A stretch of DNA of 32,822 nucleotides. Origin: Ignisphaera sp. GTDB lineage: Archaea; Thermoproteota; Thermoprotei_A; Sulfolobales; Ignisphaeraceae. The notes below the pieces were generated by a model. It was given only the letters and a program-made list of their open reading frames with translations, ran no database searches and was not told the origin of the DNA. A program made the position numbers and the translations under genes. Positions 22,603 to 32,822 of this stretch are shown in pieces (positions within the stretch are counted from its first letter, which is position 1; each line of letters starts with the position of its first letter). Location: assembly GCA_038889075.1 (NCBI GenBank), contig JAWAHS010000008.1, forward strand, positions 1 to 32,822, written 5' to 3'.

Positions 22603-23223
22603 CTATTCAAGGTCCTTTAAATATCTCTCTATATAGTTTGCGTGATCTACTATTCTCTCTATATGCCTCATGACGAGAATTCCCAGAGCCGTCATTCTAT
22701 CAACGCTATCCCTTGATGATACATCTACTAGAAGAGTATTGTAGAGTTTGTCAACTCTACCATCTATCTCTACAACAATGTTCTCATTTGTAGGCTTGAG
22801 CCTTACGAGATCGTCTAAAGCACGTTCCACAGCCCTAGTAGCTTCTTCAAATGCATCTCCAACTACCCGAATATTTGCAACACTGAATTGTGGAGCGAGT
22901 ACCGAGTCTATTCTAGCTATCTCTCTACAGTATCTGGATATTCTATATACATCGTAGGCTATGCTTATTAGTGTATGTGATATTAGAAGCTCTTTTCCTA
23001 GGGGCTGTCGCCTAGCCATAAACACTAGAACCTCATTCACAAACTCTTTTCTAATCCTATCCAACATAGCTGATGTACTATCTATCTCTTCCCATATCCC
23101 CCTCCTCGAATCCATATCGATTTCCTTAAAGAGCTTCGAAGTCTTGCTAACGATATCGCGTATATGGCTAGCCATGTGAAGAATTATCGATTTGAGGCGC
23201 TCAAGTTCAGCGGCCATAAGCAC
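22603..23223 (-). CDS. phoU: Phosphate transport regulator PhoU
   Basis: RRQPLGKEL, DVYRISRY and RHIERIVDHANYI repeats; last gene of the pst operon. Confidence 0.88.
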   Translation of the reverse strand: MLMAAELERLKSIILHMASHIRDIVSKTSKLFKEIDMDSRRGIWEEIDSTSAMLDRIRKEFVNEVLVFMARRQPLGKELLISHTLISIAYDVYRISRYCREIARIDSVLAPQFSVANIRVVGDAFEEATRAVERALDDLVRLKPTNENIVVEIDGRVDKLYNTLLVDVSSRDSVDRMTALGILVMRHIERIVDHANYIERYLKDLE

Positions 23224-23976
23224 CTATATCTCACCTCTAAGAAATTTAGCTGTGTATTCATTTGATGGATGTAGAAATACTACTTGAGCAGGTCCCTGTT
23301 CAATAATATATCCATCGTATATAAGTGTAACGCTATCGGCAACTCTAGCGGCTTGATGGGGTGAGTGGGTAACCATTATGATGGTCACCTCATCTTTAAG
23401 TGAGACTATGGCGTCCTCCAATCTTCTAGCATTTATAGGATCTATATTTGCTGTAGGTTCATCCAGTAAGAGGAGCTTTGGCTTCATAGCTAAAGCCCTT
23501 GCGAGACATAGCCTTTGCTTCTGACCTCCACTAAGCTCGTGCGGATACTTGTTGAGTCTATCCCTAACCTCTTCCCATAGCATTGCCTTCTCCAAAGCCC
23601 ATCTAACAACTTCATCAAGTTCCCTTCTACTTCTCGCAATACCATTCAGCCTAGCAGAGATGGCTACGTTTTCATATATTGTCATATGTGGGAATGGATT
23701 TGGTATCTGAAAGACCATTCCAATATCGCGTCTCAGTATATAGGGATCTGAGCTAAGTACATCTCTGCCAAGAACAGCGATCCTTCCCGTAATTCTAGCA
23801 TTGGGTACGAGATCTATGAGCCTATTGATTGTTCTTAAAAGCGTTGTTTTACCTGAACCGGATGGACCCATTATTACGTGTATAGTATTGTACGACACAT
23901 TCATAAATATGTTTTTGAGTATATGCCTACCATCTATGTATAGATTGAGGTTTTCAATCTCAACAGCATACATCAT
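23224..23976 (-). CDS. pstB: Phosphate ABC transporter ATP-binding protein
   Basis: GPSGSGKT, GMVFQIPNPFP, LSGGQKQRL, LLLDEPT and VTH motifs. Confidence 0.95.
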   Translation of the reverse strand: MMYAVEIENLNLYIDGRHILKNIFMNVSYNTIHVIMGPSGSGKTTLLRTINRLIDLVPNARITGRIAVLGRDVLSSDPYILRRDIGMVFQIPNPFPHMTIYENVAISARLNGIARSRRELDEVVRWALEKAMLWEEVRDRLNKYPHELSGGQKQRLCLARALAMKPKLLLLDEPTANIDPINARRLEDAIVSLKDEVTIIMVTHSPHQAARVADSVTLIYDGYIIEQGPAQVVFLHPSNEYTAKFLRGEI

Positions 23977-24842
23977 AGTCTAACCTCTTTCACAGCAACT
24001 TTAACAGATACAAAGATAGCTAGATAGGCGGCTAGAAGAACCAGTGCAGCTCCCCATGCAATTTCTTGGTATGACTTGAAGGGGGTTGTAATGAAGTCGA
24101 ATATAAGGAGTGGTATGGCGTCGGTAGGAGCTCTTATATCTATGTTTATCCCCATTCTATACCTTCCTACAGTGAAGAGCAGTGCTGCTGTCTCCCCCAT
24201 GGCTCTTGCAAATACCATAAGTATTCCGGTAACGATAATCCTTCTCGATACTGGTAGGAGAACTCTTCTAACAGTTCTCCATCTATCCATACCTATTGAG
24301 TAGGCGGCCTCCCTATATATTTGCGGCACGGATCTGAGAGCTGTTGAGAATGCTGTATATGCATATGGTAGTGAGATGAGCGATAGAGCTATTACACCCG
24401 CTAATGCAGAGAATCCACGCATGGGAACTACAACTGTTGTGTATACAACCATGGATACTACTATTGTTGGTACACTTGCTAGAGATCTCGAAAGTACATC
24501 AACAGCTCTAGATATTATGTTGCTGGGGAATTCTGTTGAGAGAATTGATGCTAGGAGAGCTAGCACGACCGTTATCGGTAGCGATACCAGCGTTATATAG
24601 AATGAGCCGAAGAGTGCTGGAGCTATACCGCCTACATCTCTAGATAGTGGTGCTGGAGGAGTATCTGTAAAGAACCTTAGTCCAGCTTTTGCTATAACTT
24701 GGACGCCGTTTACAGCTATAGTTATCATTATGTGAAACAATGGAACCAGTGATAGAATCGATACGGATGCTATGAACGCTATGAAGAGTCTGTTCTTAAT
24801 TCTTCTAGAGCTATACAACCACCCTCCTCCTCCACTCGTCAA
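23973..24842 (-). CDS. pstA: Phosphate ABC transporter permease PstA
   Basis: GGIAPALFGS, SVPTIV, REAAYSIG and ARAMGETAAL motifs; likely start is the TTG at 24818. Confidence 0.92.
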   Translation of the reverse strand: MTSGGGGWLYSSRRIKNRLFIAFIASVSILSLVPLFHIMITIAVNGVQVIAKAGLRFFTDTPPAPLSRDVGGIAPALFGSFYITLVSLPITVVLALLASILSTEFPSNIISRAVDVLSRSLASVPTIVVSMVVYTTVVVPMRGFSALAGVIALSLISLPYAYTAFSTALRSVPQIYREAAYSIGMDRWRTVRRVLLPVSRRIIVTGILMVFARAMGETAALLFTVGRYRMGINIDIRAPTDAIPLLIFDFITTPFKSYQEIAWGAALVLLAAYLAIFVSVKVAVKEVRL

Positions 24843-25728
24843 GGATTTTCAATCCTATAAAGCTTAGTATGAGAGTAGCTATGAGAATCACCATAGCAGA
24901 TGCATGTAGAACCGATTCTGCATATACGTATAGTCCAGCATTAGCATACTGTGAAGCTATTATCGCAGGTACAGTGTAGCTGGGTGCAAATAGACACCAG
25001 CTCAAAGACATAGAATTACCCACGGTAACAGCAGCTATAGTTGTTTCACCAGCTGCTCTGGCAAATCCAAGTACCGTAGAAGCCACTATTGCAGGTTTCG
25101 ATAACGATAGAAGAATCTTTGTAGTCTCATACCTTGTTGCACCTATGCTGAGACAGCCCTCTCTATATACTATTGGAATAGATCTATAAGATTCAGCTAT
25201 GAGCATCGCCATATATGGTGTGATGGCTATACCTATTGCAATACCAGCTGTAAAAACAGATAGCCCAGTTACTGGTTTGCATGAAAACAGTGGGATGAAG
25301 CTGAGGTACTCGTATAAGGGCTCCATTACGTAGGTCTTTAGATAGGGTGCCAGTGTATTGAGGGACCATATGGCATAGATAACGGTTGGTATACCGCTCA
25401 TCAACTCTATAAGTGATGAAACCAGCTCCCTAGTTCTACCTCTGATAAACTCGACAGTGAATACCGATAGGGGTATCGAGAAGAAGAGGGAGACAGCAAC
25501 AGCTATACCCGATGCAATGAAGGTACCGATGATAGGGGGCAGAATTCCGTACATCTCATTCTCGGGATTCCAAATGCTCTCTATAAAGAGCTTGAGTCCA
25601 AAAACACCAATCGATGTAGAGGCGTGGAAGACTAATATGATTAGAAATAGAATGAGTAGCCCGATGATCGTAATCGATGTTGGTAGAAGGGATATGAAAA
25701 ATAACCTATCGTGTTTAGATTTAAACAT
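24811..25728 (-). CDS. pstC: Phosphate ABC transporter permease PstC
   Basis: WNPENEMYGILPPIIGT, GIPTVIY, SIGATRYET and ARAAGET motifs. Confidence 0.92.
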   Translation of the reverse strand: MFKSKHDRLFFISLLPTSITIIGLLILFLIILVFHASTSIGVFGLKLFIESIWNPENEMYGILPPIIGTFIASGIAVAVSLFFSIPLSVFTVEFIRGRTRELVSSLIELMSGIPTVIYAIWSLNTLAPYLKTYVMEPLYEYLSFIPLFSCKPVTGLSVFTAGIAIGIAITPYMAMLIAESYRSIPIVYREGCLSIGATRYETTKILLSLSKPAIVASTVLGFARAAGETTIAAVTVGNSMSLSWCLFAPSYTVPAIIASQYANAGLYVYAESVLHASAMVILIATLILSFIGLKILDEWRRRVVV

Positions 25729-25741
25729 CCACTACACCTAT

Positions 25742-26950
25742 CTAGCCTGCAATTATAGATGCTGCTTGGAGTAGCAGATCCACCACCTCTGGTGGAGGCG
25801 CAGCGTATCCAGGTACCATACTGCCGTAACCTTCGTAGGCAATCCATCTAAGGAATTCACTGAGAGCCAGAGCCTTTCTACTATCATCGTATTTTTTCCA
25901 TAGGAATATGTATGTAAATGAGGCTATTGGATAGGCATCTTCATTCACAGAGTACACAACTTCGTAGAGGGTATGGCTAAAGTCGTCCATAGGCGAACTG
26001 GGTAGTGCTACACCTCTAGCAGCACTACTTATAGATTCAGCCGTTGGTAGCACAAATCTCCCTGCAGCATTCATTACCATTGCAATGGGTAGCTTGAATT
26101 CTGTTGCATAGCTCCACTCGACATAGCCAATGGAGTATCGATTTTGTAGAACTATAGCTGTAACACCCTCATTACCCTTGCCCCCTACACCTCTACCAGT
26201 GTTGTCAACAGGCCAATTGACCTGCTTACCAACAAGCTCACTAGACCATGTATTAGGAGCAGACTTATACAGAAATACTGTAAACACCTCTGTAGTTCCG
26301 CTGGCATCTGATCTATGAACTGCTATAATGGGTTGGTGGGGTAGCTTATCGGCTATCTCCCTATTCAACTCCTTTATTGCTGGATCATCCCAGTACTCTA
26401 TCTCCCCCCTATATATCTTGGCTATAACTTCACCCGTAAGCCTAAGACTATATCCGTTAGGTATCTCAGGAACGTTGTACACAACTACGACAGCACCCAT
26501 AATCCATGGAATCTGAATAGCATGACCTCTATACTGCTCCCACTGTGATTTTGATAGCGGTGGATCACTACATCCAAAGTCGACTACACGATCACTTAGA
26601 AACATTTTCTGACCAGCACCACTACCAACAGATTGGTAGGTAATTTCAACACCCGAGGCATTCTGGAAAAGCTTTATCCACTGAGCTATCTGTGGATATG
26701 GAAATGAAGCACCTGCACCAGATATGGATACCCCTCTAACCTCTGGACTAGGAGTATATCTGGTGGTAGGCGTTGGCATTATCACTGTTGTCACGGTAGG
26801 TGTTTTGTATGCGGTTTCCGTTATGGTTACAGTCACTGTACGTTCGCTACCAATAGCACCACTAAAACCAAATAATATAGCCGTTGAAGCGAGTATAACT
26901 ATAGCTACTACTATAATAGACAGTACTATAGATAGCTTTCTTGATACCAC
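25742..26950 (-). CDS. pstS: Phosphate ABC transporter substrate-binding protein (N-terminal membrane anchor and Thr-rich linker)
   Basis: GAGASFPYP, YQSVGSGAG, DFGCSD, HRSDASGTT, GKGNEGV and IGYVE motifs. Confidence 0.95.
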   Translation of the reverse strand: MVSRKLSIVLSIIVVAIVILASTAILFGFSGAIGSERTVTVTITETAYKTPTVTTVIMPTPTTRYTPSPEVRGVSISGAGASFPYPQIAQWIKLFQNASGVEITYQSVGSGAGQKMFLSDRVVDFGCSDPPLSKSQWEQYRGHAIQIPWIMGAVVVVYNVPEIPNGYSLRLTGEVIAKIYRGEIEYWDDPAIKELNREIADKLPHQPIIAVHRSDASGTTEVFTVFLYKSAPNTWSSELVGKQVNWPVDNTGRGVGGKGNEGVTAIVLQNRYSIGYVEWSYATEFKLPIAMVMNAAGRFVLPTAESISSAARGVALPSSPMDDFSHTLYEVVYSVNEDAYPIASFTYIFLWKKYDDSRKALALSEFLRWIAYEGYGSMVPGYAAPPPEVVDLLLQAASIIAG

Positions 26951-27164: not shown

Positions 27165-27776
27165 CTAGGCATTGATGTATTTCTGCATCTTTATATGTAT
27201 TTTCCTTGCTATTGATCTATATATTTTACTTCTACTTGATCTATGTATGCTTTCTAGACAGAGCTCAATGTGCTTTACAAGCTCTGCTCTTTTTTTCTTT
27301 GATGTATATGGTATTTTTGTAAGCCATACAAGAGCTTCTATAATCGATGCTGAAGCCCTTGTAAATCCCCTTGGAATTCTTCTGAGGATCTTAACTGCCA
27401 AAGGCTTTGCATACATGAGAATACTGTTCCTCTCACTATCTGTAGATTCTATAGCGAATTCGATTATTGCATCACATACATCCTCTCTGTTTGTAAATAG
27501 CTTTATAGCTCTATCCTTTTCAAATATCGATAGATAGAACAGCCTGGCATCCTGTGTAATACAGATGCAGCCACTTCTGACCAGATTACCTACAATAGCT
27601 TCATATGTTCTACCACCTCTGTATACCTTTGACACTATATAGCCATCCCTAAGCTTAAACCCGAGGGGTACCACATTAACTATACTACTGTCATCGCCAT
27701 AGAGGAGAGCTACGGCCTCTAGATATGTAGTGCTCGAGAAGCCTATTCTTTTAAGCAACCTCACAGTGTTTTCCAT
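27165..27776 (-). CDS. DUF447-like protein (split-barrel fold), pterin-cluster associated
   Basis: YLEAV..NVVPLG..VYRGGRTYE and C-terminal FTRASASIIEALVWLTK resemble DUF447 'NRA..A.IEA.V..TR'; divergent from mptE. Confidence 0.7.
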   Translation of the reverse strand: MENTVRLLKRIGFSSTTYLEAVALLYGDDSSIVNVVPLGFKLRDGYIVSKVYRGGRTYEAIVGNLVRSGCICITQDARLFYLSIFEKDRAIKLFTNREDVCDAIIEFAIESTDSERNSILMYAKPLAVKILRRIPRGFTRASASIIEALVWLTKIPYTSKKKRAELVKHIELCLESIHRSSRSKIYRSIARKIHIKMQKYINA

Positions 27777-27880
27777 AGCTCTACAACCCAACAGCTAATT
27801 GACTCTATACCACACTACAGTTTATATAGCTATTGAGAATCTGCTTAAGTTAATCGAGTAGCTGTTTAAGGTCCTCTACA

Positions 27881-28627
27881 GTGTCGTGGCTTATAGATAG
27901 AAATTTATGGCTAGAGCTGTACAGCTCTATAAAGAGTATGCTAAACCTCTCCTTTGATCAAGACCAGATGGCTACCGATACACTAAGTAGCATACTCAGC
28001 GCATTGCCTAATGCTATAGATGTTCAACAGCTGAGAAATGCTATAAGTAGTCGCTGTGTGTTTATCTTGGGGCCAGCTCTAAATATAGAGCACGATTTTA
28101 GAAAGGCTATTGAATTAGGATTGACCGACCGACTTCCTACCATTGCCATCGATGGTACTGCGACATTCCTTTATGAAAAGGGTTTTATTCCAGATATCAT
28201 AGTCTCCGATCTCGATGGAGATCCAAACCATATAGTGTATCTAAATAAAAGGGGCTCTATAGCCATAGTTCATGGACATGGAGATAATATAGGTGAGATA
28301 AGGATGTGGGTTCCTAGATTCAGGGGATCTGTAATAGGTTCTACACAAGTTGAGCCAAAGCCGTATGTCTATAATTTTGGAGGGTTTACAGATGGCGATA
28401 GAGCTCTATTCATAGCATATGCACTTGGTGTTAGAAAGGCTATTATCGGTGGTATGGATTTTAGAGGTCCTATAGGTAGGTACTCCATAGTGTATAGGAG
28501 AAAGGATGAGGATATTAAGAGGGTAAAGCTATCCATAGCTATAAAACTTATAAGCATGCTAATCTCATGGGGTATGGAGATAGATGCTCTATCTGATCCA
28601 GGTATTCCAGGTGTTAAGGTGATATAG
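27881..28627 (+). CDS. mptE: 6-hydroxymethyl-7,8-dihydropterin pyrophosphokinase
   Basis: IVSDLDG, HGHGDN, GSTQ, NFGGFTDGDRA and GMDF motifs. Confidence 0.9.
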   Translation: MSWLIDRNLWLELYSSIKSMLNLSFDQDQMATDTLSSILSALPNAIDVQQLRNAISSRCVFILGPALNIEHDFRKAIELGLTDRLPTIAIDGTATFLYEKGFIPDIIVSDLDGDPNHIVYLNKRGSIAIVHGHGDNIGEIRMWVPRFRGSVIGSTQVEPKPYVYNFGGFTDGDRALFIAYALGVRKAIIGGMDFRGPIGRYSIVYRRKDEDIKRVKLSIAIKLISMLISWGMEIDALSDPGIPGVKVI

Positions 28628-28628
28628 T

Positions 28629-29045
28629 TTGAATGATCCAGCTAAAAAGTACTTCTCTCCAAAGATTTCAGATAGAGATCGGGCTATCTTTGAAGCTGGA
28701 ATAGCTCTCGGTATGGCAATCCACCAGTTTACAGGAATACCAATAAGATTTCGTGAAGAGGTAGAGCTTCTAAGGAAGGTTATCGAGTATGCCATAACAT
28801 CACAGCCATTTAAAAAGGAGGCTCATGTAAAAATAGACATCGATATCAACGGTACTGAGAGATCTAGAGACCCCTACAAATATACTACGCTAAAAAGCAG
28901 AAATATGGATATAACAATAGTAGTTGAGTATGGAAATGCTATTGTAAGAGCTAGACTAAAATACATACCTGAACTCGATTACAGTCTCGCATACATTGAA
29001 GATGTAGTTGAGAAATGCTCTACCACAGCCATTTCTACTGAGTAA
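28629..29045 (+). CDS. mptD: Archaeal dihydroneopterin aldolase
   Basis: SDRDRAIFEAGIALGMAIHQFTGIP, SQP, Y-x-x-L and ELDYSLAYI motifs; directly after mptE. Confidence 0.9.
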   Translation: MNDPAKKYFSPKISDRDRAIFEAGIALGMAIHQFTGIPIRFREEVELLRKVIEYAITSQPFKKEAHVKIDIDINGTERSRDPYKYTTLKSRNMDITIVVEYGNAIVRARLKYIPELDYSLAYIEDVVEKCSTTAISTE

Positions 29046-29130
29046 ACAGTTGAAATTAAGAGACGAAGCAATACCATCTATAGTATAGAATCCAGAGCCA
29101 ATACCAAAATGGTACAACCCATATAAATTC

Positions 29131-29172
29131 TAGGGCTACTACGCTGTACTTATAGGAAGTGGAGTAGCCCTA
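29131..29172. repeat. Perfect 10-bp inverted repeat between mptD and dmrX
   Basis: TAGGGCTACT (29131-29140) and AGTAGCCCTA (29163-29172), with a 22-nt spacer that can pair further (ACTT/AAGT). Confidence 0.6.
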
Positions 29173-29257
29173 TAGCAGTGATTCCAAACACATTGGGGAA
29201 AGCATCGTAAAGGTATAAAATAGTAGATGAGTAGCATTATCTAAAGGTGATCTACTT

Positions 29258-29992
29258 TTGATAAATATTGCTTGGTGTATAACTGGAGGAGGTTTGAATC
29301 TGAGAGCTGTAGCCTCTACTCTAGGGGTTATTAGAGAGAGATATCGAGTTAATGTAACGCTATTCCTAACTAAATGGGGGTTTGAGGTGTCTAGAATATT
29401 TGGTGTTCTAAATATTCTTAAGAGTATTGCATCTGGTGGCTACTATCAGGAGTTTCTCGTTGAAGAACAGGGTATGTACTACATTGGTAGACTCAATATG
29501 AAGAGGTACTCTATCCTCATTATAGCACCTGCAACGGCAAATTCTGTAGCAAAGATGGTGCTGGGAATAGCTGACAATATTGCATCCGCATTGTATTCCC
29601 AGGCAATTAAGAGTAGCATTCCGGTGGTTATTCTACCGACCGATATTCCAGGTAACGATGGTTTTATAGAGACTGAAACACCGTGCTATATAGATAGAGC
29701 TGTGTGTAGCCTTGATTCATGCGGTGGGTGTTTGGCTGTAGGGGTATGTCCAGTAAATGCTATCGTTACCGTAGATGGAGTTGTGAGGATAGATCTATCG
29801 AAGTGTATTGGATGTGAACACTGTATATATGTGTGTCCTAGGGGGGCGGTAAGGTGTTGGGAGAAGGTAAAGCTTATGCCAAGGGATGTGGATGTTCAGA
29901 ATATCGAGAAGCTGAGGAGGTCTCCATATACATATGTTGTTAGTAGTGTTTCGGAGCTCGAAGATACTGTGAAGAGGATTCTAAAACTATAA
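29258..29992 (+). CDS. dmrX: Dihydromethanopterin reductase (acceptor)-like iron-sulfur flavoprotein
   Basis: HFCD flavoprotein motifs IAWCITGGG and IIAPATANSVAKMVLGIAD, with an inserted 2x[4Fe-4S] domain (C..CGGC..CP, CIGCEHC..CP); pterin-cluster context. Confidence 0.8.
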   Translation: MINIAWCITGGGLNLRAVASTLGVIRERYRVNVTLFLTKWGFEVSRIFGVLNILKSIASGGYYQEFLVEEQGMYYIGRLNMKRYSILIIAPATANSVAKMVLGIADNIASALYSQAIKSSIPVVILPTDIPGNDGFIETETPCYIDRAVCSLDSCGGCLAVGVCPVNAIVTVDGVVRIDLSKCIGCEHCIYVCPRGAVRCWEKVKLMPRDVDVQNIEKLRRSPYTYVVSSVSELEDTVKRILKL

Positions 29993-29995
29993 CAT

Positions 29996-31162
29996 CTACT
30001 CTTTACATAGATTGGATCTGTGTACTGTTTCTATATACGCTCTTCTAACTCTTTCAACGAAATTCTGTGCCCTTGCATGGATAATGTAGTCAACAGATGT
30101 TCCACAGGCTCCCTCTATATCCATATGCTTAACCAAATCCCTGAAGTATCCACCAACAATACCCTCACCAATAGCTGCATATCCCTGTGCTGCCTCCTTA
30201 GCCTTTGTAACACCCTTTAACCCTCTAAGTGTTGTTACATTGAGATCCTTAAACAGCTCCCTAAGATGCTGTAAAACAGTAGAATTTCTACTGTGCCTAC
30301 CTGTTAGAACTATAGTATCTGCCTTTGGTGATGAGATTCGCATTCTAGCTATATCCTTGGCCACACCCTCTATAAATGCGCTAAACATTGATGTGTAAGG
30401 CTCTTCACCAGCTTCATAACCCTTAACTATGGTCTCTAGATCAAATGTTTTAGCGCCGTGGAATACACCTCCGTAGAAGACATCCCAACGACTCCACATA
30501 CCCACTCCTACGACAACTTCGAGATCTAGTGCTCCAGCTGTGAGAGTACCTATAGAGGCATAGCTACCCCCTATACCATCGACAACGAAACCCCTTTCAA
30601 CGGCTATAGATGCTGCGTATCCAAATCCAAGCTCCGTAACTACTATATTTATCTCTCTAAAGTCTTTGCCAAGCCTTTCACTCATTTCATACACTGCTAG
30701 AAATGCTGAAGCAAGCTTGTCAACGGTACCCATATCAACCTTATTAATCTTTCTATATCTAGGCACGGTACGTAGATGTATTACAGCAGGTAGAAATACC
30801 ACTCTCTCTCTGTAGTTTTTAACAAGGTGCGACACAGTCTTTACAATAGCATCGTAGACCCATATACCCACCTCACCAGCCTTAGCCCCTGCTCTAATGG
30901 CATCTCCTGTGCTAAGTAGTATAATTTCGGTAGAAAACCTCTCAGCATCTCTAATATTATCGCCAAAGGTGATGGGTACACCATAGCCGGAGGGAGCTAC
31001 AATGTACTCTGGCTCTAACCTATCTATAGCTTCAATAAGTATTTGAGGTTCCTTAGCTATTGAAAATGTATCGAGGCTCTGCTCAACCTTAACGGAACCA
31101 TCCTCTAATACAATAATATCAAAGGTCTTTGTACCAGGATCGATACCTACAACTCGCACCAT
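29996..31162 (-). CDS. DUF1464-like ASKHA-fold (acetate/butyrate kinase-like) protein
   Basis: VVGIDPGTKTFD phosphate-1 motif, APSGYG, KINKVDMGTVDK, ELGFGY, VDGIGG and KEAAQGYA motifs; start set at the ATG at 31162 after a GGGGTGG RBS. Confidence 0.8.
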   Translation of the reverse strand: MVRVVGIDPGTKTFDIIVLEDGSVKVEQSLDTFSIAKEPQILIEAIDRLEPEYIVAPSGYGVPITFGDNIRDAERFSTEIILLSTGDAIRAGAKAGEVGIWVYDAIVKTVSHLVKNYRERVVFLPAVIHLRTVPRYRKINKVDMGTVDKLASAFLAVYEMSERLGKDFREINIVVTELGFGYAASIAVERGFVVDGIGGSYASIGTLTAGALDLEVVVGVGMWSRWDVFYGGVFHGAKTFDLETIVKGYEAGEEPYTSMFSAFIEGVAKDIARMRISSPKADTIVLTGRHSRNSTVLQHLRELFKDLNVTTLRGLKGVTKAKEAAQGYAAIGEGIVGGYFRDLVKHMDIEGACGTSVDYIIHARAQNFVERVRRAYIETVHRSNLCKE

Positions 31163-31231
31163 ACCTACCACCCCTAAATCAATAGGATCCACAGGACCGT
31201 ACCACAGTCACTGGCGTAGCGATTAAAAACC

Positions 31232-31239
31232 TTTATAAA
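31232..31239. promoter_or_regulatory. Palindromic TATA box in the divergent DUF1464/mptA intergenic region
   Basis: TTTATAAA located between two divergent starts, each with an RBS. Confidence 0.55.
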
Positions 31240-31298
31240 TACATAAAGCATTTACCAATCTTAGAGCATATCGAGTTGTAGAGTAGGGTGATAGTAGT

Positions 31299-32186
31299 AT
31301 GAATTCCAGTGGTGTTCCACCGGATGTACAGTCCTCTAAACCGTTGTACAGCATTCCCATAGATCAAGTTGGTGTAAAGGGTGTTTACAGAAGGGTGTGC
31401 ATTGGTGGTTCTAGGGGAAGCACTTGTCTAGATACATATATAGACATCCTAGTTGATCTCCCCAAGGCTCAGCGAGGGATCCATGTGTCTAGAAATATAG
31501 AAGCAGCACTAGATGTGTTTAGCATTATTGAATACGCTAGCTTTACATCTCTTGAGGAAGCTATTGAGAGTCTATGTAGAGAGTTGCTCACTAGACATAG
31601 TTATGCTAGTTATGCCGAGGCAAAACTTTCGACAACTTTTCTATATGAGTATAGAGATAGCGATTTAGATTTAAAGGAGAACATACCTGTTAAACTATCC
31701 ATAAAATCCAGGGTTTCTAGAGGGGATAGTAGTGTCCATAGAAAACTGTGTATAGAGGTTATCGGTATGACCGTGTGCCCGTGCGCTCTCCAATTATGTA
31801 GCTATACACTTAATACAGTAGGCTATGCGCCTTCGCATACCCAAAGAGCAAAGCTAAAGATATGCATATCTACAGTGAATAGCTTCATAGATGTTGCAGA
31901 GCTTATAGAGATAGCTTTGAATTCCTTCTCCATACCAGTCTTCAGTTATCTTAAACGTGACAAGGAGTGTAAGATGATTCTAAAGGGATTTGGAAATGCA
32001 AAGTTTGCTGAAGATGTTGTTCGCACTGCTCTCTACGGTCTGTATGAGAGATTCGGTAGGAAATTAGCTCCAGATAGTATGGTGTACATTAGTATTAGGA
32101 GCTTTGAAAGCATACATCCATTCGATCTATTTGTTGCCACTAGGTACAGTATGGGAGAATTGGCTAATTATCTTTCAGCTGGCTAG
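31299..32186 (+). CDS. mptA: GTP cyclohydrolase MptA (FolE2 family)
   Basis: PDVQ, RGIHVSR, GMTVCPCA, SHTQRA, KFAEDVVR and ESIH motifs. Confidence 0.92.
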   Translation: MNSSGVPPDVQSSKPLYSIPIDQVGVKGVYRRVCIGGSRGSTCLDTYIDILVDLPKAQRGIHVSRNIEAALDVFSIIEYASFTSLEEAIESLCRELLTRHSYASYAEAKLSTTFLYEYRDSDLDLKENIPVKLSIKSRVSRGDSSVHRKLCIEVIGMTVCPCALQLCSYTLNTVGYAPSHTQRAKLKICISTVNSFIDVAELIEIALNSFSIPVFSYLKRDKECKMILKGFGNAKFAEDVVRTALYGLYERFGRKLAPDSMVYISIRSFESIHPFDLFVATRYSMGELANYLSAG

Positions 32187-32191
32187 AGACC

Positions 32192-32822
32192 ATGGCTATA
32201 TGCATCGAATCCTCAGCTAGGCTGCATCTAGGTTTCTATAACTTTTTTGAAGATGGTATTGCCTACGGAGGGCTTGGTGTAGCAATTGAGTATCCGAAGG
32301 TAAGGGTTAGGATAGATAGAGATGTGGGATTCAGGATTATAAATAGGGTTGGAAATCTATACATAGATGATGTTATTGATAGCATTAGAAAGCGTCTATC
32401 TATTAGCAATATTGTTATCGATATTGAAGAGGCGTTTCCACGACACATAGGTCTAGGAGGTACAACACAGCTAGCACTATCGATAGGCTATGGAATAGCG
32501 AAACTGCTTGGGCTAGGCTACAGTATTCGGGAACTAGCCGCAATACTTGGTAGGGGAAGGGATTCTGGTATAGGTATAGCCACATTTGAGTATGGTGGTT
32601 TTGTAGTTGATAGCGGTAGAAGGGTTAGAGGTAGTGTTGAGCCTCCGAGAACTGCCGATGACATCCCCCATATAATATTTAGAAGTCCTCTACCAGACAA
32701 CTGGTACTTCATCATAGTAATTCCACACGGTATTAAGGGATTGGATGAGATTAGGGAGAGATCAGCCATGGACTACCCCCGGTCTCTACCAAAGGAGCTT
32801 CAGTACGAGCTCTATAAGCTCG
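32192..32822 (+). CDS. mptG: Beta-ribofuranosylaminobenzene 5'-phosphate (beta-RFAP) synthase, GHMP family; 3'-truncated by the window edge
   Basis: Absent from the ORF track because there is no stop in the window. My translation: MAICIESSARLHLGF..YGGLGVAI..PRHIGLGGTTQLAL..GRGRDSGIGIATFEYGGFVVDSG. Confidence 0.88.
   Translation, partial: MAICIESSARLHLGFYNFFEDGIAYGGLGVAIEYPKVRVRIDRDVGFRIINRVGNLYIDDVIDSIRKRLSISNIVIDIEEAFPRHIGLGGTTQLALSIGYGIAKLLGLGYSIRELAAILGRGRDSGIGIATFEYGGFVVDSGRRVRGSVEPPRTADDIPHIIFRSPLPDNWYFIIVIPHGIKGLDEIRERSAMDYPRSLPKELQYELYKL

Follow-up and report, generated by a model that had tools for sequence, protein, structure and literature searches.

The question raised by this locus is what a compact block of methanopterin-type biosynthesis genes makes, and for which use, in an archaeon whose genome shows no match to McrA (PF02249). 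The block lies in a stretch of 32,822 nucleotides (the window), which corresponds to C8:1-32822 of the genome of an Ignisphaera sp. (G000), an assembly of 25 contigs and 1.95 Mb rated 99.6% complete; G denotes a genome of the order draw, L a sequence locus examined and C a contig. Genes were called from open reading frames (ORFs) together with Pfam and NCBIfam profiles, AlphaFold models were searched with Foldseek against the Protein Data Bank (PDB), and the family profiles were run over 81 genomes of the order from 13 families (f1, f2 and so on), with G000 counted in. Control genomes, 14 of them in the SHMT search, were scanned as well; M. jannaschii and M. acetivorans were the methanogen controls, and S. 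acidocaldarius was compared with them. Our analysis showed seven pathway-linked genes within about 6.1 kb and no unrelated gene between them. The stretch is very likely a consolidated cluster that covers the early steps of tetrahydromethanopterin (H4MPT) synthesis and the last ones, and would provide the cofactor for the genome's own Wood-Ljungdahl genes.

The five genes named by the first-pass annotation, mptE, mptD, dmrX, mptA and the beta-RFAP synthase gene, were all confirmed by the ORF, Pfam and NCBIfam calls, and the enzyme assignments follow from family membership. The MptE-like 6-hydroxymethyl-7,8-dihydropterin diphosphokinase (27881-28627, + strand, 248 aa) matched PF01973 with 68.4 bits against a gathering threshold of 34.6 (E 8.4e-19) over profile positions 11-167 of 171; since PF01973 also holds members other than MptE, this assignment leans on its context. 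MptD, the archaeal dihydroneopterin aldolase (28629-29045, + strand, 138 aa), begins a single base pair beyond the MptE stop codon and matched PF04038 over its full length (positions 1-108 of 108, 114.9 bits against a gathering threshold of 25, E 3.3e-33). The DmrX-like dihydromethanopterin reductase (29258-29992, + strand, 244 aa) matched TIGR02700 with 177.3 bits (E 2.7e-52), by far its best NCBIfam match, AfpA scoring 93 bits. Its PF02441 domain covers residues 3-134 and is followed by Fer4 families over residues 144-200, and its translation contains eight cysteines in two 4Fe-4S motifs, CX4CX2CX5CP and CX2CX2CX3CP. The MptA-type GTP cyclohydrolase (31299-32186, + strand, 295 aa) matched TIGR00294 with 200.6 bits over positions 1-299 of 302 (E 3.2e-59) and PF02649 with 168.5 bits, compared with just 114.3 bits on the FolE2 model NF010200. 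The beta-RFAP synthase gene starts at 32192 on the + strand, and its first 210 codons, which matched NF040726 (E 5.4e-31) and TIGR00144, reach the end of the window at 32822. Two further genes in the span had gone unnamed. One encodes a DUF447 protein (27165-27791, - strand, 208 aa) that matched PF04289 (DUF447_N) with 34.7 bits against a cut-off of 24 (E 2e-8), and the other a DUF1464 protein (29996-31192, - strand, 398 aa) that matched PF07318 with 267.8 bits (E 1.7e-79) over profile positions 1-326 of 327. Seven pathway-linked genes side by side in a genome of about 2000 genes are far beyond chance, by our own estimate rather than a computed test.

The window ends at the start of a run of 96 N (C8:32823-32918), which is taken as a scaffold spacer because the assembly contains 28 such runs, all of 92-99 N. 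Beyond it, RFAP synthase resumes as a 109-codon frame with the GHMP_kinases_C domain and ends near C8:33246; the GHMP N and C domains were thus both found, one on each side of the spacer. In an alignment with a same-genus orthologue, the two halves cover its residues 35-244 and 245-353 with none missing, and judged from this alignment the gene very probably runs intact across the spacer. Scored separately, the halves gave 96.2 and 36.7 bits, a rough sum of 133 against the TIGR00144 cut-off of 113.5, and the orthologues in clusters of the same genus gave 142-158 bits. The cluster ends with RFAP synthase. What had been annotated as a cluster continuing past the window edge is just the last 109 codons of this gene, and the genes beyond are unrelated: DUF72, a fucose-isomerase-like gene, then HdrC/B/A-MvhD-like and NiFe-hydrogenase genes. 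The last group, 3 kb downstream (L002 8970-14580, equal to C8:35969-41579), consists of HdrC-, HdrB- and HdrA/MvhD-like genes and the small and large NiFe-hydrogenase subunits, and could be a source of reduced ferredoxin for the Wood-Ljungdahl genes. Directly upstream of the cluster, a phosphate ABC transporter operon (pstSCAB-phoU; window 22603-26950, - strand) encodes a PstS-like binding protein, two permease-like proteins (one without a Pfam match), an ATPase and PhoU.

Within the cluster, DUF447 and MptE are divergent and their starts are separated by 89 bp (27792-27880), presumed to be a shared promoter region. DUF1464 is convergent with DmrX and divergent from MptA, and the 106 bp between the DUF1464 and MptA starts (31193-31298) are likewise presumed to be a promoter region. 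The gene spacing suggests four transcription units, namely DUF447, MptE-MptD (perhaps with DmrX), DUF1464, and MptA-RFAP synthase.

The reactions of MptA, MptD, MptE, RFAP synthase and DmrX are known from methanogens, and by analogy MptA would convert GTP to dihydroneopterin cyclic phosphate, MptD would cleave dihydroneopterin to 6-hydroxymethyl-dihydropterin, and MptE would add the diphosphate to the latter. On the other branch, beta-RFAP synthase would form the aryl-ribosyl half from phosphoribosyl pyrophosphate and p-aminobenzoate. The condensing enzyme, similar to dihydropteroate synthase (DHPS), and a CitG-like/nucleotidyltransferase pair would be supplied from elsewhere in the genome, and DmrX would reduce the finished dihydro-cofactor. 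DUF447 and DUF1464 are most likely pathway enzymes as well, DUF447 for a putative reductase step dependent on flavin mononucleotide (FMN) and DUF1464 as a putative ATP-dependent phosphotransferase whose substrate would be an intermediate in the aryl-ribosyl branch. The first-pass annotation had looked to the adjacent sequence for further pathway genes. A DHPS-like gene of the TIGR00284 type does exist in G000, yet on another contig (C12:2930-4525). The CitG-like gene and its adjoining nucleotidyltransferase-like gene are at C2:248137-250235 (L106 5137-7235) and a MetE-like gene is at C2:208371-209333, while a PTPS-like gene was not found in G000.

The genome also indicates how the cofactor would be used. 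Profile searches of G000 gave Mch (361 bits), Mtd (388 bits), Mer (443.5 bits, above cut-off), Fae (237 bits) and the hydantoinase-like family TIGR03123 (307.6 bits, above cut-off), in addition to a ThyA-like gene and a CODH/ACS operon in the order CooC-CdhA-CdhB-CdhC-CdhD/E-RACo. A 21-kb island on contig C1 (C1:161525-182830; L023, L024) contains Mch, FwdC/A/DB-like genes, Mtd, Ftr, an FrhB-like gene and MfnB, as well as a RimK-type ATP-grasp gene, an ADP-forming acetyl-CoA synthetase, CofE/D/C, an amino-acid-kinase-family gene, TIGR03123 and a HisA/F-like gene. In methanogens, Mch, Mtd, Mer, Ftr, Fwd, Fae and CODH/ACS use H4MPT. With Fwd, Ftr, Mch, Mtd, Mer and CODH/ACS present and McrA not found, G000 carries the archaeal non-methanogenic Wood-Ljungdahl set. 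SHMT, GcvT and ThyX were not found in G000 by profile search, and SHMT matched in 14 of the 14 control genomes. Because the Fwd-Ftr-Mch-Mtd-Mer-CODH/ACS genes are present and SHMT, GcvT and ThyX were not found, the gene content points to Wood-Ljungdahl use and not to Sulfolobus-style SHMT metabolism, and the cofactor most likely serves the archaeal Wood-Ljungdahl pathway together with Fae and the ThyA-like enzyme. The seven family calls and the one-carbon genes of the genome make it very probable that the host synthesizes a methanopterin-type cofactor, as first proposed. The host, a hot-spring archaeon, is also a non-methanogenic member of the Thermoproteota, given the missing McrA match and nearest named DUF1464 relatives from metagenome-assembled genomes (MAGs) of Desulfurococcaceae, Sulfolobales and Ignisphaera.

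Such genes have been described in this lineage before. According to PMC5020050 (2016), Ignisphaera is among the Crenarchaeota with one-carbon genes linked to H4MPT and methanofuran, which some genomes have and some do not. Our order draw agreed with that pattern, since Mch was found in 12 of 81 genomes, comprising G000, seven of the eight other genomes of the genus and four of the 72 that belong to other families. PMC6421429 (2019) reports MAGs of Ignisphaera in which the Wood-Ljungdahl genes are complete and Fae and HdrAB are present; in its main text, the words methanopterin, H4MPT and pterin are absent and the biosynthesis cluster is not described. The surprise implied by the first-pass annotation is therefore removed by the genome's own one-carbon pathway and by this prior literature, and the lineage is largely one in which such genes are routine.

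Across the order, the pathway is assembled from differing sets of alternative enzymes, and physical linkage is common. RFAP synthase was found in 76 of the 81 genomes (45 above cut-off), DUF1464 in 60 (a strong match in 56), MptE in 51, DUF447 in 39, MptA in 30, DmrX in 20, and MptD in 13 from f1 and f10 only; bacterial HPPK was confined to four genomes, all in f13. The divergent DUF447/MptE pair recurs in f2, f3, f10 and f12, and is followed by RFAP synthase in seven of the eight f3 genomes. RFAP synthase-DUF447-DUF1464 operons and MptD-DmrX pairs occur in f10, RFAP synthase adjoins DUF1464 in f2 and f8, and MptA-DUF1464 pairs occur in six of the seven f11 genomes. Full consolidation was seen in the genus of the window, in G032 and G070, and partly in G027, and a truly scattered arrangement only in the Sulfolobaceae-like f13. 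The statement that these genes are usually scattered thus does not describe this order, where members of these families are often grouped in sub-clusters or full clusters. Six of the eight other drawn species of the genus carry the cluster, with the seven families together in varying order and orientation, and proximity kept in spite of shuffled order argues for selection on proximity. The cluster of the window is not the most complete one, since clusters of 8-10 genes occur at L039 (Bathyarchaeia), L059 ('Candidatus Scotarchaeum') and L062 (a Thermoprotei MAG).

The clusters of relatives contain additional genes. These encode a DHPS-like protein of about 520 aa (TIGR00284, 370 bits), a CitG-like protein (PF01874, E 4.6e-57), a nucleotidyltransferase-fold protein (PF01909, E ~1e-7) and a MetE-like protein, and a PTPS/QueD-like protein is found in the cluster of relatives without MptD. 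The CitG/nucleotidyltransferase pair also forms an operon with DUF1464 at L020 7974-10598 (Sulfolobaceae-like, f13). We take this pair to resemble CitG/CitX or MdcB/MdcG in its chemistry, and it may assemble the ribose-phosphate portion of the side chain. A second RFAP synthase paralogue (129-133 bits) adjoins DUF1464 away from the main cluster in three genomes (G003 C2:267968-269999, G004 C9:13798-15829 and G021 C1:598364-600389); G000 has the cluster copy only, plus one distant GHMP match on C9. In genus g23 of f7, G039 and G058 have Mch with more than 400 bits and none of the six other families, and the RFAP synthase profile gave no match in G039 and a weak GHMP-type match in G058 (E 6e-5); judged by these profiles, both seem to carry an H4MPT-type enzyme without a recognizable cofactor pathway.

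The two DUF families are the candidates for further steps that the cluster brings forward. The AlphaFold model of DUF447 has a predicted local distance difference test (pLDDT) score of 93.3, and its best PDB matches were the FMN-bound DUF447 proteins 2ptf (TM 0.70), 2iml, 2nr4 and 3b5m, followed by flavin reductases. On the basis of this model, DUF447 is predicted to be an FMN-binding split-barrel protein similar to flavin reductases. The solved DUF447 proteins, which are 2ptf (MTH_863), 2iml (Archaeoglobus fulgidus), 2nr4 (MM1853) and 3b5m (Rhodopirellula baltica), come from methanogens, Archaeoglobus and a planctomycete; the fold is shared over the whole length with them, but the identity is only 13-22% and they have no assigned reaction. 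DUF58/DUF447 proteins of a Pyrodictiaceae MAG were attributed to cannulae formation in a 2026 paper (PMC13140500). The FMN-bound structures and the synteny with the pathway point to a cofactor-pathway flavoprotein rather than that role.

DUF1464 was modelled with a pLDDT of 90.9 and a predicted TM-score of 0.91 as an ASKHA fold. Its best Foldseek matches were butyrate, acetate and propionate kinases (E 1e-15 to 1e-10, TM 0.5-0.6), and a profile search against the PDB matched butyrate kinase 2 with an E of 5e-8 over residues 159-296 only. The conserved ASKHA nucleotide-binding motifs were DPGT, DMGTADK, GGT and TGR, with D18, G20, D153, G155, T156, G208, G209, G298 and R299 invariant in 17 DUF1464 sequences. 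The two-domain ASKHA fold and the phosphate-binding motifs are thus shared with butyrate kinase 2 and the acetate/propionate kinases (1saz, 1x9j, 1g99), but the identity is 12-17% and the genomic context of DUF1464 is a cofactor pathway, not fermentation. The nearest named relatives were from a Desulfurococcaceae archaeon MAG (73% identity), a Sulfolobales archaeon (67%) and Ignisphaera sp. (56-59%), and most of them carry the same cluster (L026, L027, L029, L030, L033). Among 80 named DUF1464 loci surveyed for pathway neighbours, 28 had at least one other pathway family, with RFAP synthase at 23, DUF447 at 16 and MptE, MptA and DmrX at 15 each. Both DUF1464 and DUF447 also matched in Sulfolobus acidocaldarius. 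We found no link between DUF1464 and methanopterin in a literature search that left most subscription journals outside its reach; the family name turned up in a paper on serpentine soils. Thus the guilt-by-association value ascribed to the cluster holds up, with DUF447 and DUF1464 as candidates recurrently linked to the pathway.

Other roles for DUF1464 were considered. A crenarchaeal stand-in for Orf20/TIGR03123 was rejected for G000, which has both families. A role as an electron-transfer activator of the HgdC/BcrAD type was also rejected, since the matches were weak (E 0.005-0.15; TIGR00241, E 0.003) and the 17 sequences contain no invariant cysteine. Replacement of the diphosphokinase would fit f8, where MptA, RFAP synthase and DUF1464 are each present in all eight genomes and MptE and bacterial HPPK in none, which leaves the diphosphokinase step of f8 with no known gene, but it was not adopted because in most other families both DUF1464 and MptE occur. 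We tentatively propose, as a possibility well short of probable, that DUF1464 as an ATP-dependent kinase and DUF447 as a flavoprotein form a coupled pair for one unassigned step in many archaea outside the classical methanogens. Such a pair may carry out an activation and a reduction on the RFAP branch, or may act in the phenol-to-aniline and ribofuranosyl-to-ribityl conversions, which have been proposed from methanogen extracts.

Several observations weigh against our interpretation of the cluster and of its two DUF families. The DmrX and MptA scores are below the curated cut-offs of 251.35 for TIGR02700 and 220 for TIGR00294. None of the 20 TIGR02700 matches in the order reached its cut-off (the best had 225 bits), for which reason this model seems tuned to methanogens, and MptA orthologues within the genus gave 168-221 bits on TIGR00294. 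TIGR00295, which we take to be the MptB phosphodiesterase family, had no match in G000, and the step after MptA is consequently left without an assigned gene. G006 and G012 of the same genus have Mch present without MptA, MptD, MptE, DmrX, DUF447 and DUF1464, and beside their RFAP synthase, which scored weakly in G012 (47.8 bits), the one further match among the pathway profiles was a weak one to DmrX (24 bits). As for DUF1464, 52 of the 80 loci have no pathway neighbour, including that of the nearest relative (L025, 73% identity) and Methanoperedens and Thermococci loci. It also had no match in M. jannaschii or M. acetivorans, and since both make H4MPT, DUF1464 cannot be a universal step. These DUF1464 results would fit bystanders, which would place DUF447 and DUF1464 beside the pathway by chance or regulation without any catalytic step. 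That explanation is unlikely in view of the linkage itself: by our reading of the coordinate tables, at least 26 of the 56 strongly matching genomes of the order have RFAP synthase, MptA, DmrX or DUF447 no more than 2 kb from DUF1464, the partner of DUF1464 varies between families (f2, f8 and f10 have RFAP synthase, six of seven f11 genomes MptA, and the single f13 locus examined CitG/nucleotidyltransferase), and DUF1464 is also linked to the pathway in loci of Bathyarchaeia, Nezhaarchaeota, Nitrososphaeria and Archaeoglobi. Moreover, DUF447 and DUF1464 are same-strand neighbours in seven of the 80 loci, and their ORFs overlap in L004, L010, L011, L012 and L013.

The product and the origin of the cluster could also be read in other ways. 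Sulfolobus uses the modified folate sulfopterin with its SHMT (PMC3697235), and the implicit reading of the first-pass annotation was a modified folate of this kind, made for biosynthetic one-carbon transfers (serine/glycine) only instead of H4MPT. The spread of RFAP synthase over 76 of the 81 genomes, most of which lack Mch, would suit that reading. We regard it as highly improbable for G000, where SHMT, GcvT and ThyX were not found, the enzymes from Mch to CODH/ACS including Fae are present, and MptD, DmrX and TIGR03123 are families that match in the methanogen controls and not in S. acidocaldarius. A recent horizontal acquisition of the island from a methanogen-related or Bathyarchaeia-like donor could account for the patchy occurrence of MptD (with its two families), DmrX and Mch in the order and for the genomes of the genus without these genes. 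We give it little credence, since the G+C content of the cluster (0.40-0.42) is the same as that of its surroundings, neither flank showed a mobile-element gene, the rearranged clusters in six of the eight other species of the genus imply long residence, and the Ignisphaera pattern is read as recent losses in PMC5020050. Synthesis of H4MPT for the Wood-Ljungdahl pathway of the host is thus still the interpretation that we favor.

The methanogen genes for H4MPT synthesis are MptA, MptB, MptD, MptE, beta-RFAP synthase, a DHPS-like gene of the MJ0301 type and DmrX. As in methanogens, the MptA, MptD, MptE, RFAP synthase and DmrX families are all encoded in G000, with the DHPS-like TIGR00284 gene elsewhere in the genome, and the MptD, DmrX and TIGR03123 profiles match in both M. 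jannaschii and M. acetivorans. Unlike in methanogens, the genes of G000 are in one 6.1-kb block with DUF447 and DUF1464, McrA has no match in G000, and DUF1464 has none in the methanogen controls. In methylotrophs, where the pterin branch consists of bacterial folate enzymes, orf19, orf20 and orf21 of the H4MPT islands presumably correspond to DUF447, TIGR03123 and a CitG-like gene, respectively; G000 also has TIGR03123 and a CitG-like gene. Two such islands of Methylosinus trichosporium, 'orf19-orf20-afpA-orf21-orf22' and 'pcbD-mptG', appear in PMC3615186, and there, as in the cluster of G000, an AfpA/DmrX-type flavoprotein and RFAP synthase (mptG) occur with genes of unknown function; the methylotroph hosts use the cofactor for formaldehyde oxidation, and no DUF1464 is named in the island in that text. 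G000 is similar to the published Ignisphaera genomes in having Cdh, Fwd, Ftr, Fae and Hdr and no Mcr match (PMC5020050, PMC6421429). Since H4MPT-linked one-carbon genes have been published for this lineage before, the presence of archaeal H4MPT biosynthesis genes in it is expected rather than surprising.

As a cluster, the locus confirms that in an Ignisphaera-like archaeon the published Wood-Ljungdahl set is accompanied by genes for making the cofactor on which this pathway depends. To our knowledge, several steps of methanopterin synthesis have no assigned enzyme, and the comparative value of the locus is that in this lineage DUF447 and DUF1464 stay tightly linked to MptA, RFAP synthase and DmrX in spite of many rearrangements, and the relatives add DHPS-like, CitG-like and nucleotidyltransferase genes. 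The outcome is a short list of candidate enzymes for expression and assay. Sulfolobus acidocaldarius is genetically tractable and, with both DUF families in its genome, would be a possible host for testing them. If DUF1464 and DUF447 do act as a coupled pair, the cluster and its relatives would name missing enzymes of the pathway.

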